Numbered from the stretch's first letter, positions 38,441-55,712 are shown. The stretch is 64,000 nt of DNA from Eledone cirrhosa (GCA_964016885.1 OZ024742.1:321656001-321720000); one strand, 5' to 3'. Notes: a model not told the origin generated them from the letters alone. Translations and numbers: made by a program.

Positions 38441-38502
38441 TTTCATTATATATATTTCAGGGATATCATATTAACAATATGTTATGCCTTCTTCAGACAA
38501 AA
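38441..38502 (-). ncRNA. Type I hammerhead, family B
   Basis: UUUUGU-CUGAAGA-AGGCAUA...UAUCCCU-GAAAUAUAUAUA-AUGAAA. Confidence 0.65.
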
Positions 38503-40916
38503 TACAATATAGACAGTTTTATAGATAAATAGATTTGACATACCGTTCAACATCGACTTGTATTTGAAAAATCAACTTTTTCAAATAGACTAAAATCCAA
38601 AGAGGGCTCGATAAGGAAAATATATATGAAATATATAAGAACCGTAGAGCAAATATTTATTAAAATATATATATATATATATGTGTGTGTGTATATATAT
38701 ATAACGAAGGAAATGTGATAAGGAACCAGATGGGCCATAACACACCAAAGTACTCAATACTTAGGGTAGTAAAGTGGGTAATAGGAACGAGTAGGACCCC
38801 GACGGCTGAGCTCAAGCCGTTTCGACGGCATATTTTAGTCCAGAATTAGCCGTCGAAACGGCTTGAGCTCAGCCGTCGGGGTCCTACTCGTTTCTATGTA
38901 TATATATATATATATATATATATATATACATATATATATATATTCATATATATATATATATATATATATATATATATACATATATATACATATATACATA
39001 TATATATATATACATATACAAGTTAATATAAATTAATATATATGATAAAACACAAATACCAACATATAAGTGTTTGTATTGTAAATGACTAAGTTAGCTA
39101 GATTGAAAAATACTAATTATATATATACATATATATATATGTATATATATGTATATATATATATATATATATGTATATGTATGTATATATATATATATAT
39201 ATATATATATATATATATATATATATATATATATATATATATATATATATATATATATGTGTGTGTGTGTGTGTGTGTGTGTGTGTGTTCATACATAAAC
39301 ATACACATCTGAGAAAAGATGGAGTAGCTATGAATTGTTCCTTAGGTCGTATATTGGCGGTGTCATTCATGACCAAATTATAAACCTAAATGGTACCGAG
39401 CTATAAATACACCATATATATATATGGAGGATATTAATCATCATAACAGACACACCAGAAGACCTCGAGATGGTTAAAGGAGATCTAACAAATAGCAGAC
39501 GACTACAATGCAACTGCCACATCTTGTAAACTTTACTTCAAATGTCATATCAGCTGTAAAAGTTTAACAGTTTCTATTTCCCGTATCATTTAGAATAGCC
39601 CCTCTCTATTGCGGTTATAATTACATACATATGTGTTTATATGTATGGTCCCGTAACTCCTGATAGAGTCGTAGGGGCGCCGTAGTGACATACGACGTTT
39701 CTTGGGCATTTTAAGCCTGGCGGAGCCCATCCCTCTCTCCAGACCTACCCATCTCTATTACAAACAGTTAACACTGTTCAGAACATTCCCATTAAGCTGG
39801 TGTTTGCAACATAACTTAACAAAGGTTCTTACAGAATCTTATGACGGGAAGCTTTTAGATAAATATAATATGTAGGAACACAGGATCGTGTATGCCTGCA
39901 GGGGTGACCCTTTAAGAGAAACACCTTAGGCCACCTATTGGCAGTCATAAAATATGGGGTTTTATTGCTATTGCCACGAATTATTCCGCAATGTCGAAAC
40001 CATATTGAAGCCTGTAAAATAATTTTTGATTTCTTTTCTCAAAAAACCAAGGTCGAGCTTTACACCAGATTGACTTCTGCACAGAAACACATATAGTCGT
40101 GGGTGAGAGTGTGTGCATGAGGATGAAAGAAAGAGGGGGAGCAGAAAAGAAAGAAAGATAGAAAGAAAGAAAGAGATACAGAAAAAAGAGAATTATGAGA
40201 AAGAGAGAGATTAAGATAAAGGTACATTCATAATATTTTTCACCAAAAATGTTTTTCAATTTCTAACAATTTTCTTTCTCGCTTCTCTCTCGCTCTTTCT
40301 CTTCCTCTCGTTCTCTTACTATCTACATTTCTTTTTTTCCTCAGCCTCTTTCTCTCTCACACCCTCACTCTCTCTCTCTCCCTCCCCATCCCACTCACTC
40401 TCTCTTTCCCTCTTCACATATTACTTCAGGCATTGTGACCTTCATTTTCTGGGAGTTAACGTGACAATACTAATTGATTTTATATGTGTACACACACACA
40501 CATACACACACGCACACACACGCATACACACATGTATATAAATACACATATATACATATACATATATATTTATATATATATATATATATATATATATATA
40601 TATATATATATATATATATATATATATATATATATATATACATATATACATACATATATATATATATATATATATATATATATATATATATATATATATA
40701 ATATATATATATATATATATATATATATATATATATATATATATATATATATATATATATGCATACATACATACATATATACATATATATAACAGCAGGC
40801 GCATCCACACATATATTTATGCGCTGTTTCGGATATATAGAGATATAAAACGTATATATCAATGAAGGTAATAATAATAATAATATTTATAATAATTGAT
40901 TCTATATTTAATAATG

Positions 40917-41825
40917 TTTTCTTTATTAACCACAAGGGTTTACATAAAGTAGACATTAAGGACAGTACAGGACAATACAGGACGGTACAAATGGGCATTT
41001 CTGCGTGTAAAAAAAACAGAGGATGAAATAAAATAACAAAGAAAAATTCCCCAATAGGGGGGAGACTTCCGAGGGACATTTGTGGAGAAAGCCCAGTAAA
41101 AAGCCACAATGACCCTGACCACCAAGGCAAGTGCCCTCTCCCAGTTTTCCACCTTTAATTTACAGATATATACTCAGAGTAGGCCCATTCACTCGGGCCA
41201 TTCTTGCTTCTCTCACCCATCTTTCAACAAAATGCTGGGAAGAGAGCACTTCCCTCTCTGCCCTGATTTTCCTTTTCAGATGAAATTTGAAAAAGTCAAT
41301 CAGAACATCACCGAAGAGGTAAGTGCTCGTCTTCAGCCCTTTCAAGCGTGTCCACCATACTATCTCTTTCGCCATGGTCACTATACAGATAAAAACTGCC
41401 TGCCCTTCCCGGCTAAAGGAGGAGGGCGGGGCAATCCTCACGATGGACTCAGATGATAGCTGGATCCGTCCTACACGTGACAGCAGGTGTTCGACATAAA
41501 CCCACAAGTCAGCAATGCTCGGACACTGGACGAGTGCGTGCAGGACGGTTTCGTCGCCCTGTGCGCATCTCGGACATGCCCGGCTGACGGCACCTCCATG
41601 CCTGTAAAGTTTATCCCGAACTGGCAAAGCACCCCAGTAGCACTGCCAGGCCAGGGATTTCTGGAAGTTGTCCATAGGCCCCGGCCCGAAAGTCCTTCCG
41701 AAGAGATTGGCTAGTTGATTTTCGTCGACGCCTAGAGTTTCTCCAAGTACGTCGTCGCTCTTCCCCTCCACTAATCCCCTATAGAACGCCAAGGTGGAGT
41801 TTCCACCGATCACATTGCCCGATTG
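40917..41825 (-). mobile_element. 5'-truncated L1/Tx1-like copy, nearly identical to the 58656-59583 segment
   Basis: ORF 41160-41813 matches the last 217 aa of ORF2; same 3' UTR; degenerate (ATT)n tail. Confidence 0.93.
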
Positions 41826-41990
41826 ATTTCTTTATTGGCCACAAGGGCTGACATCGAGAAAAACATTACAGACGACACAGTACGGTACAGGACGGTACGA
41901 TGTGGGTTTTGTGCGTGTAAAGATTTTTATTATTTATATAAGAAACGAAAAAGAAAAAAGACACAGAAACATATATTTAATAATAGTAAA
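41826..41990 (-). mobile_element. 3' UTR fragment of a related LINE subfamily
   Basis: Minus strand ends CCCTTGTGGCCAATAAAGAAATC and shares GTACCGTCCTGTA with the main 3' UTR. Confidence 0.65.
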
Positions 41991-54897: not shown

Positions 54898-55218
54898 TAA
54901 ATATATATATATATGTATGTGTGTGTGTGTGTGTGTGTGTGTGTGTGTGTGTGTGTGTGTGTGTGTGTGCATGTGTCTATATAATATACCAATGCTCCAA
55001 TGGATGCTTGTCTACGTAATCCCAGATCTTAGATAGGTACAACTGAAGCGGAGAGCTTAAGCCTGATTACACCCTAACTCGGTGACTGTGGCGTGGCGAT
55101 AAAACCAGCACTGACAACCAACTAACATTGAAATTAAGCTAACTATATATATATATATATATATATATATAATACGATATATTAACAAATGGAAACTATA
55201 TTTATAAAACCATATTTA

Positions 55219-55279
55219 TTTCATTATACATATTTCAAGGACACCAAGTCAAATTATGGTGTGCTTTCATCAGATAAAA
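55219..55279 (-). ncRNA. Type I hammerhead, family B
   Basis: UUUUAU-CUGAUGA-AAGC-ACACCA/UGGUGU-CCUU-GAAAUAUGUAUA-AUGAAA. Confidence 0.7.
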
Positions 55280-55655
55280 TATAATATAGATCAGTTTTAT
55301 AAATAAATATTGACATACCCTTAAAGAATGCGACCATTTCTGTTGGAAGCTCCCGGATAGTGGGGTTATAAATTTATTTATACTATTATGCAAATTAGTG
55401 TCGGATATTTTTAGATCACAGTAGATTTAAAATAAGCCGTTGGGGTATGGAGAAAGGGAAAGAAAAGAAAGAGAAAAAAAAGAGAAGAAAAAAAAAGAAA
55501 AATATATATATATATATATATAGGGATATTCAATTTGTCGGTAATTCAACAAATATAAATGTTTATAACTGATTCAGAGCATTCGACAAGTTTTCTGGAG
55601 TATAATATACAATCATATTAAATAAATGGAAACTATATTTATAAAACCATATTTA

Positions 55656-55712
55656 TTCTATTATATATATTTCAAGGGTACCAAAATTTTGGTACGCTAT
55701 CATCAGATAAAA
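55656..55712 (-). ncRNA. Type I hammerhead, family B
   Basis: UUUUAU-CUGAUGA-UAGC-GUACCA/UGGUAC-CCUU-GAAAUAUAUAUA-AUAGAA. Confidence 0.7.

Follow-up and report, generated by a model that had tools for sequence, protein, structure and literature searches.

Hammerhead ribozymes of Penelope-like elements (PLEs), with covariation in their helices and a palindromic loop III, are already in print (Cervera and de la Pena 2014, PMC4209133). Those of the Hydra clade have been published from elements including Hydra-1_Obim of Octopus bimaculoides (Craig et al. 2021, PMC8557442), where their role is stated to be unclear, being either the processing of precursor RNA or merely riding along. Here we describe a further member of this known phenomenon, a hammerhead family (family B) with four copies in a 64,000-nt stretch of Eledone cirrhosa DNA (OZ024742.1:321656001-321720000). 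This whole stretch is the window, in whose coordinates all positions are given. In family B, changes that became fixed in copying lineages can be told apart from later decay, and both its fold and its palindrome were under selection. The strongest new point is evolutionary evidence that suggests dimer pairing at the centre of stem III.

With the Hydra elements of Craig et al. (PMC8557442) family B shares a GIY-YIG-type C-terminal region of the open reading frame (ORF), RWK-like, DKT and CxCX5C motifs, (TA)n targets, and a sense hammerhead near the 3' end with a near-palindromic stem/loop III. A U·U pair beside the core also occurs in many listed Hydra members. The hammerhead sequence of Hydra-1_Obim differs, however, and its protein, compared by eye, clearly belongs to a separate family. 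Moreover, the family B unit measures ~4 kb, of which the 3' region takes up 1.5-1.9 kb, whereas the listed members are mostly <3 kb; further differences are that stem II contains a conserved C·C/C·A mismatch, that the monomer stem III is 2 bp long and that motif copies exceed 51,000. Compared with the minimal hammerheads of PMC4209133, stem I is long, having 8-12 bp and an outer stem in addition, no extra base is needed before stem II, and G10.1-C11.1 is not conserved (A-U, G-U, G-C and U·U all occur). Covariation is stated in the available text of that article with no test against post-insertion decay, which is the test applied here to family B.

Two further systems invite comparison. Poseidon PAc (Frangieh et al. 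2024, PMC11167929) likewise has a hammerhead in its pseudo-long terminal repeat (pLTR), two 3' ends with an optional tail, and AT-rich targets, but it belongs to a different clade, its tail is 30-40 nt as opposed to ~90 nt in family B, and its hammerhead overlaps the ORF start, which in family B lies ~220 nt further on. Dimeric type I repeats and retrozymes (Perreault et al. 2011, PMC3088659; Cervera and de la Pena 2020, PMC7229834) likewise combine a weak helix III and a palindromic loop; dimers have been proposed for such repeats and shown to cut faster in axolotl. Unlike these, family B is not a short tandem retrozyme, so that a partner would lie ~4 kb off or on another RNA, and its copy number is no record, the axolotl repeat numbering ~120,000 copies. 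Our literature searches listed no work on family B and none that examined the loop III centre quantitatively or for covariation, although supplementary figures of PMC4209133 and PMC3088659 may hold a similar palindrome series; the main text of an O. vulgaris repeat paper contains neither 'hammerhead' nor 'Hydra'.

Selection on stem II and on the palindrome centre

An earlier note on this DNA had described four minus-strand copies that keep CUGA(U/A)GA, GAAA and UAU(A/G)UAUA, and all four are indeed present on that strand with these elements intact. Each reads in the order stem I, CUGA(U/A)GA, stem II, GAAA, UAU(A/G)UAUA, stem I, which is that of a type I hammerhead, so that CUGANGA, GAAA and an NUH site (AUA) stand in stem I-II-III-I order in 4/4 copies. 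The distal stem II pairs had been quoted correctly; the list was nevertheless partial, since every copy also contains a 3-bp helix proximally and a 1x1 mismatch, either C·C or C·A (Table 1). Both-sided change in stem II is borne out as well, the aligned columns of the four copies differing on both sides at II.1, II.2, II.3, II.5 and II.6. Loop II ranges from 4 to >20 nt across copies, which argues against a fixed tertiary contact between loops I and II. In one subfamily, comprising L097, L226, L234 and relatives, a second CUGAUGA or CUGAGGA box lies within stem II or loop II, either by chance or as an alternative fold.

The motif is abundant. A loose core pattern gives 9 matches in the window against 0.64 expected, a count reached in 0/100 shuffles; these matches include three of the four copies, 38441 falling outside because its 31-nt spacer is one above that allowed. 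An exact pattern gives 51,188 matches genome-wide and 1 for the reversed control, in a genome of 3.0 Gb that is dense in (TA)n and has four contigs of close to 400 Mb. Rfam searches returned no hammerhead family among the best 150 of 253 window matches, and in 4 loci nothing matched at the motif with E <= 10. Single-sequence folding gave z-scores of -3.1 for copy 55219 and -0.1 to -1.2 for the other three; such folding was dropped as a guide to the strand, the opposite strand scoring equally low or lower.

For the evolutionary analysis 331 sites were collected from 300 loci and the window, mostly from the first part of contig 1. The search patterns held the core and some positions of stems I and III constant; in stem II they constrained nothing but length, save for L001-030, L221-250 and L271-300. 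Removing 68 same-insertion partners or sites with short flanks and 5 with stem II indels left 258. States common to nearest neighbours from different insertions were taken to represent source lineages, and private changes mostly later decay; this rule was adopted since clustering at a fixed threshold broke old copies into singletons. Changes on trees were counted without direction or order. Applied to the ORF, the split gave synonymous:nonsynonymous ratios of 83:42 for shared and 126:167 for private changes (p = 1.7e-5), thereby detecting purifying selection and behaving as expected.

The same division shows that the stem II fold is kept by selection in copying lineages. Pairing is retained 18:7 in shared states compared with 39:57 in private changes (p = 0.007), and two-sided Watson-Crick swaps make up 11/25 of the former and 3/96 of the latter (p ~1e-6). 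When the tree was built with the paired columns left out, joint changes of partner columns in the 258 copies numbered 43, as opposed to 18.0 +/- 5.2 for re-paired columns; the observed number is reached by 11/362,880 permutations (576/362,880 without the old clade, and 460/362,880 when loci picked by similarity or for a non-C base were left out too). II.2, II.3 and II.6 (8/439 null pairs as high) and II.9 (24/439) stand out singly, and ~22 two-sided events are counted on a tree that includes stem II.

A 40-row alignment, leaning towards intact copies, was assembled from the 4 window copies, 22 matching their neighbours' majority and 14 hand-picked for diversity. From it RNAalifold recovered stems I and II unprompted and did not predict stem III; 94.6% of cells pair, compared with 84.8% after shuffling and 34-50% when slid. 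Pair counts exceed 500/500 shuffles on four of five measures and 499/500 on the fifth, together with all slid controls. Covariation is clear in helix II and in helix I consists mostly of wobble swaps. The suggestion that RNA structure is under selection is thus upheld by co-change, permutation, RNAalifold and shared/private tests on the aligned genomic copies. At position II.4 every shared state is a mismatch (C·C 244, C·A 10), and protein contact as its role is a guess; a similar, slightly looser genome pattern with a non-C base on the 5' side of II.4 yields only 3,642 matches, a number that includes internal secondary ones. The older clade of the family B hammerhead (L271-L300, 558 matches) has a stem II of up to 46 nt with the same 3 bp and C·C (or C·A) mismatch, and mostly CG centres in stem III.

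The palindrome noted earlier in stem/loop III, with its AUA site, is present in all four copies. Written as AUA-xy-UAU, it allows only two A-U pairs in a monomer, with a hairpin energy of +4.7 kcal/mol, and eight pairs with a second copy; a stable monomer helix III was not found. Such a weak monomer helix III is usual in the repeat hammerheads of metazoans for which dimeric action is assumed.

The palindrome centre is also under selection. The only lineage-shared centres are UA, UG and CG, and the 14 changes counted between them on the tree are best read as a maximum because the tree is noisy. Genome-wide, between identical flanks, the centre UG occurs at 27,267 sites and CA at 118, the latter scattered over subfamilies at the decay level, for which an invariant stem I pair gives 99 and 79 sites. 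CG, counted with a pattern 2 nt shorter, occurs at 669 sites clustered in few subfamilies and is the usual state in the old clade. Predicted self-pairing energies are -3.2 (UA), -2.2 (UG) and -6.5 kcal/mol (CG), against +1.0 for CA. As the centre bases x and y are adjacent, they can pair only across two ribozymes, and the excess of UG far above its strand mirror CA therefore points to RNA-level pairing between two ribozymes.

The carrier element

The carrier was found through loci where the hammerhead flanks reverse transcriptase (RT) frames, 15 being taken from 150 listed RT matches for their RT similarity and long open frame. A sense family B hammerhead is present in 15/15, downstream of the ORF in 14/15 and upstream in 7/15, with a perfect catalytic core and NUH site in every locus. 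The single ORF, up to ~743 aa with RT preceding endonuclease, carries RWR (RSR in one copy), DKT, CNCRNKSNC (CxCx5C), YRDD and CDLC (CxxC) motifs and a GIY-YIG-like VYNC...YVG. The Hydra clade is defined by an RWK-type N-terminal motif, DKT, a CxCX5C linker and a CxxC near the C-terminus (PMC8557442), and we assign the carrier to it by this motif agreement rather than by tree placement. Pfam gave no significant match for the ORF protein, and the names of its homologues were uninformative for classification. Whereas the earlier note had located selection on RNA structure in source elements that it left unnamed, these sources appear to be Hydra-clade PLEs, and the placement stands.

Marks of PLEs accompany the motif: (TA)n insertion, pLTRs, inverted 5' copies and an optional tail. 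Head-to-head pairs of the same family dominate neighbouring sites (55/104 close pairs). Same-strand neighbours of the family lie mostly 3.5-4.9 kb apart, in the RT loci around the ORF (7/9 pairs), a spacing that rules out a retrozyme without terminal repeats, that is, short non-coding head-to-tail repeats. Positions of the 3' ends fall into two clusters, +48-54 and +137-150 counted from the cut site, with (TA)n beyond them, as expected of the optional tail that characterizes PLEs (PMC11167929). A tail stem, ACUC...GAGU, is found in 79/258 copies and in 70 of these begins between +55 and +62, just beyond the short 3' end; in this sample, selected for full hammerheads, 13/229 tail anchors lack a full hammerhead, with scattered junctions. 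A GIY-YIG ORF beside one copy (L029), first taken as the carrier, was rejected as lying on the opposite strand and belonging to another family with ORFs of ~1,240 aa. The genome also holds a second, young GIY-YIG-bearing PLE family (L101-L130), with open frames of ~1,190-1,260 aa.

As judged from sequence, each window copy is confirmed as a candidate type I hammerhead motif and sits in a 3' end fragment, comprising pLTR and tail, of a Hydra-clade PLE. The fragments are 5'-truncated, roughly 170-400 nt long, and are probably inert, truncated products. Identical stem II forms recur at other sites for copies 38441 and 45956 and the same form for copy 55656, while copy 55219 has many relatives elsewhere at 99-100% identity, often as head-to-head pairs. 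A degraded Hydra-like RT remnant (Table 1) shows 36-42% identity to the intact family ORF; that it stems from the same insertion as copy 45956 is not established.

Proposed dimer cutting and its alternatives

We propose a model in which type I hammerheads in the terminal repeat of a Hydra-clade PLE, with helices kept by selection, would cut only as dimers paired through stem III, and we regard this as the likely reading. A pLTR-ORF-pLTR transcript would hold two hammerheads ~4 kb apart, which could swap stem III strands to form an 8-bp palindromic duplex, probably with help from the element's protein. The paired hammerheads would then cut after AUA and release a unit RNA, a step modelled on PMC4209133 and PMC7229834, and a lone hammerhead would stay largely uncut. 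RT may begin ~50 or ~140 nt past the cut site, its template being RNA that is uncut or has been re-joined, and this would explain why intact hammerheads with one of two tail lengths are found at (TA)n sites. It is also possible, more tentatively, to see in the tens of thousands of copies a natural mutational scan, in which adjacent loop bases covary between two ribozymes. PLE hammerheads may then be selected as dimers in vivo, forming a switch that cuts only RNAs with two terminal repeats, with the C·C/C·A mismatch as a docking site for protein.

Several observations weigh against this model. Independent events are few (~20), the four window copies alone are insufficient to show selection, copy numbers reflect few expansions, centre copy counts are not independent events, and the trees come from short, noisy alignments that inflate change counts. 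In the co-change test II.1, II.5, II.8, II.10 and the stem III centre (101/439 null pairs as high) do not reach significance singly, nor does stem I in the comparison of shared with private states (p = 0.31). Some shared states break pairs (U·U and A·C at II.1, G·A and A·A at II.8, U·U at II.9/II.10), and C·A occurs in 12/143 outer stems. Core letters were fixed by the search patterns, so that core conservation is assessed in the 15 RT-picked loci only. Furthermore, efficient monomer cutting is known for invertebrate hammerheads whose stem III has 2 bp (PMC7229834), and for Anolis Poseidon insertion in vitro is independent of cleavage and no RNA reads end at the cut site (PMC11167929).

That the pattern arose with no selection on RNA at all, through common descent, DNA-level hairpin correction or adenosine-to-inosine (A-to-I) editing copied back, is now very improbable and largely refuted. 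The copies are related and independent events few, as such an account would have it, yet the co-change test takes the tree into account and still holds. A hairpin process acting on DNA is strand-symmetric and should produce G·U as often as A·C; among shared states, wobbles number 13 and mirror A·C states 3 (p = 0.02), an excess over the strand mirrors that such a process cannot give. Private stem II changes, at 17 A>G to 8 T>C (not significant), lean in the direction of editing. Editing as the source of G-U pairs was nevertheless rejected, there being no A>G excess over T>C in the ORF (52 vs 53), the tail (22 vs 32) or the invariant stem I pair genome-wide (79 vs 99).

Two other accounts accept the selection and assign it a different purpose. 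The hammerhead may be real and selected while cutting as a monomer with the help of the element's protein, the palindrome being kept for some other purpose, for instance to stabilise the loop or contact a protein. Cleavage by the Poseidon hammerhead requires its protein (PMC11167929), two-pair stem III motifs of invertebrate retrozymes are efficient as noted, and the centre pair lacks significance on its own. Such a monomer, however, would depend on a stem III of two A-U pairs at +4.7 kcal/mol, and would leave unexplained why the centre moves among UA, UG and CG without CA despite about equal T>C and A>G decay, so that we consider it unlikely. Alternatively, the fold could be kept as a binding or folding signal for RT, or for the formation of RNA dimers, with negligible cleavage in vivo. 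Consistent with this are the poor in vitro cleavage of minimal PLE hammerheads (PMC4209133), the insertion of Poseidon without need of cleavage (PMC11167929), the uncut hammerhead plus tail held by inserted copies, and the resemblance of the conserved C·C/C·A mismatch to a recognition site. Against it stand the perfect catalytic core and NUH site in 15/15 RT-picked loci, and shared H17 and U16.1 states that fit catalysis, which make it improbable and less credible than assisted monomer cutting. For distinguishing these accounts from dimer cutting, family B offers a natural allele series of A-U/G-U/G-C pairs, UA/UG/CG centres and an invariant C·C mismatch, together with near-intact ORFs.

Window features and neighbouring elements

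Table 1. Family B hammerheads, the fragments that carry them and the RT remnant in the window.
Feature	Position	Strand	Details
Hammerhead copy 55219	55217..55281	-	core span 55273-55233; sequence, folding
Copy 55219, stem I	55281-55274/55224-55217	-	
Copy 55219, outer stem I extension	~55304-55295 with 55210-55201		
Copy 55219, CUGAUGA	55273-55267	-	GAAA 55236-55233
Copy 55219, stem II	55266-55237	-	AAG/CUU, C·C, ACACCA/UGGUGU
Copy 55219, palindrome AUAUGUAU	55233-55226	-	predicted cut after A55225 (H17)
PLE end fragment with copy 55219	~55172..55500	-	5'-truncated, short 3' end, flanked by (TA)n; BLAST, tail, fold
Hammerhead copy 55656	55654..55714	-	core span 55706-55670; CUGAUGA 55706-55700; GAAA 55673-55670
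Copy 55656, stem II	55699-55674	-	UAG/CUU (U·U at II.1, AG/CU), C·C, GUACCA/UGGUAC
Copy 55656, palindrome AUAUAUAU		-	predicted cut after A55662 (H17)
PLE end fragment with copy 55656	~55522..55900	-	long 3' tail, ACUC...GAAU stem 55601-55581
Hammerhead copy 45956	45950..46012	-	core span 46000-45970; 12-bp stem I; CUGAUGA 46000-45994; GAAA 45973-45970
Copy 45956, stem II	45993-45974	-	GGA/UCC, C·A, GUAC/GUAC, loop UGUU
Copy 45956, palindrome AUAUGUAU		-	predicted cut after A45962 (H17)
Fragment holding copy 45956	~45905-46070	-	between (TA)n tracts
Hammerhead copy 38441	38439..38504	-	core span 38496-38455; CUGAAGA 38496-38490; GAAA 38458-38455
Copy 38441, stem II	38489-38459	-	AGG/CCU, C·C, AUA/UAU, A·A (II.8), CAUAUU/AAUAUG
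Copy 38441, palindrome AUAUAUAU		-	predicted cut after A38447 (H17)
PLE end fragment with copy 38441	~38305..38700	-	long 3' tail, ACUC...GAGU stem 38390-38371
Degraded Hydra-like RT remnant	47300..47747	-	tblastn E = 2e-11, translation

Two other hammerhead-like families occur in the window. At 19291-20560 (+) a 457-bp head-to-tail repeat, 2.8 identical copies long and with its start adjoining (TA)n, carries in each unit a different type I hammerhead-like motif (~19486-19564; stem I CUGU/ACAG, CUGAAGA, a long branched stem II, GAA ACC GUC GGU A), and from its sequence looks like a retrozyme array. At 42330-42376 (-), directly after (TA)n, lies a separate small hammerhead family (CUGAUGA A GGAC UAGC GUCC GAAA) with 18 BLAST matches among the fetched loci, probably the 'family A' of the earlier reader.

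The remaining features are of other kinds. A 1,195-aa endonuclease/RT frame and an upstream frame at 58917-62504 and 62745-63791 (-) resemble a near-intact retrotransposon without long terminal repeats, which is putatively Tx1-like, and RTE-like fragments lie at ~34245-37522. Two long near-perfect inverted repeats at 54314-54431 and 54614-54787, with weak matches to microRNA families, are possibly miniature DNA transposons, and a tRNA-like match is found at 31177-31248.

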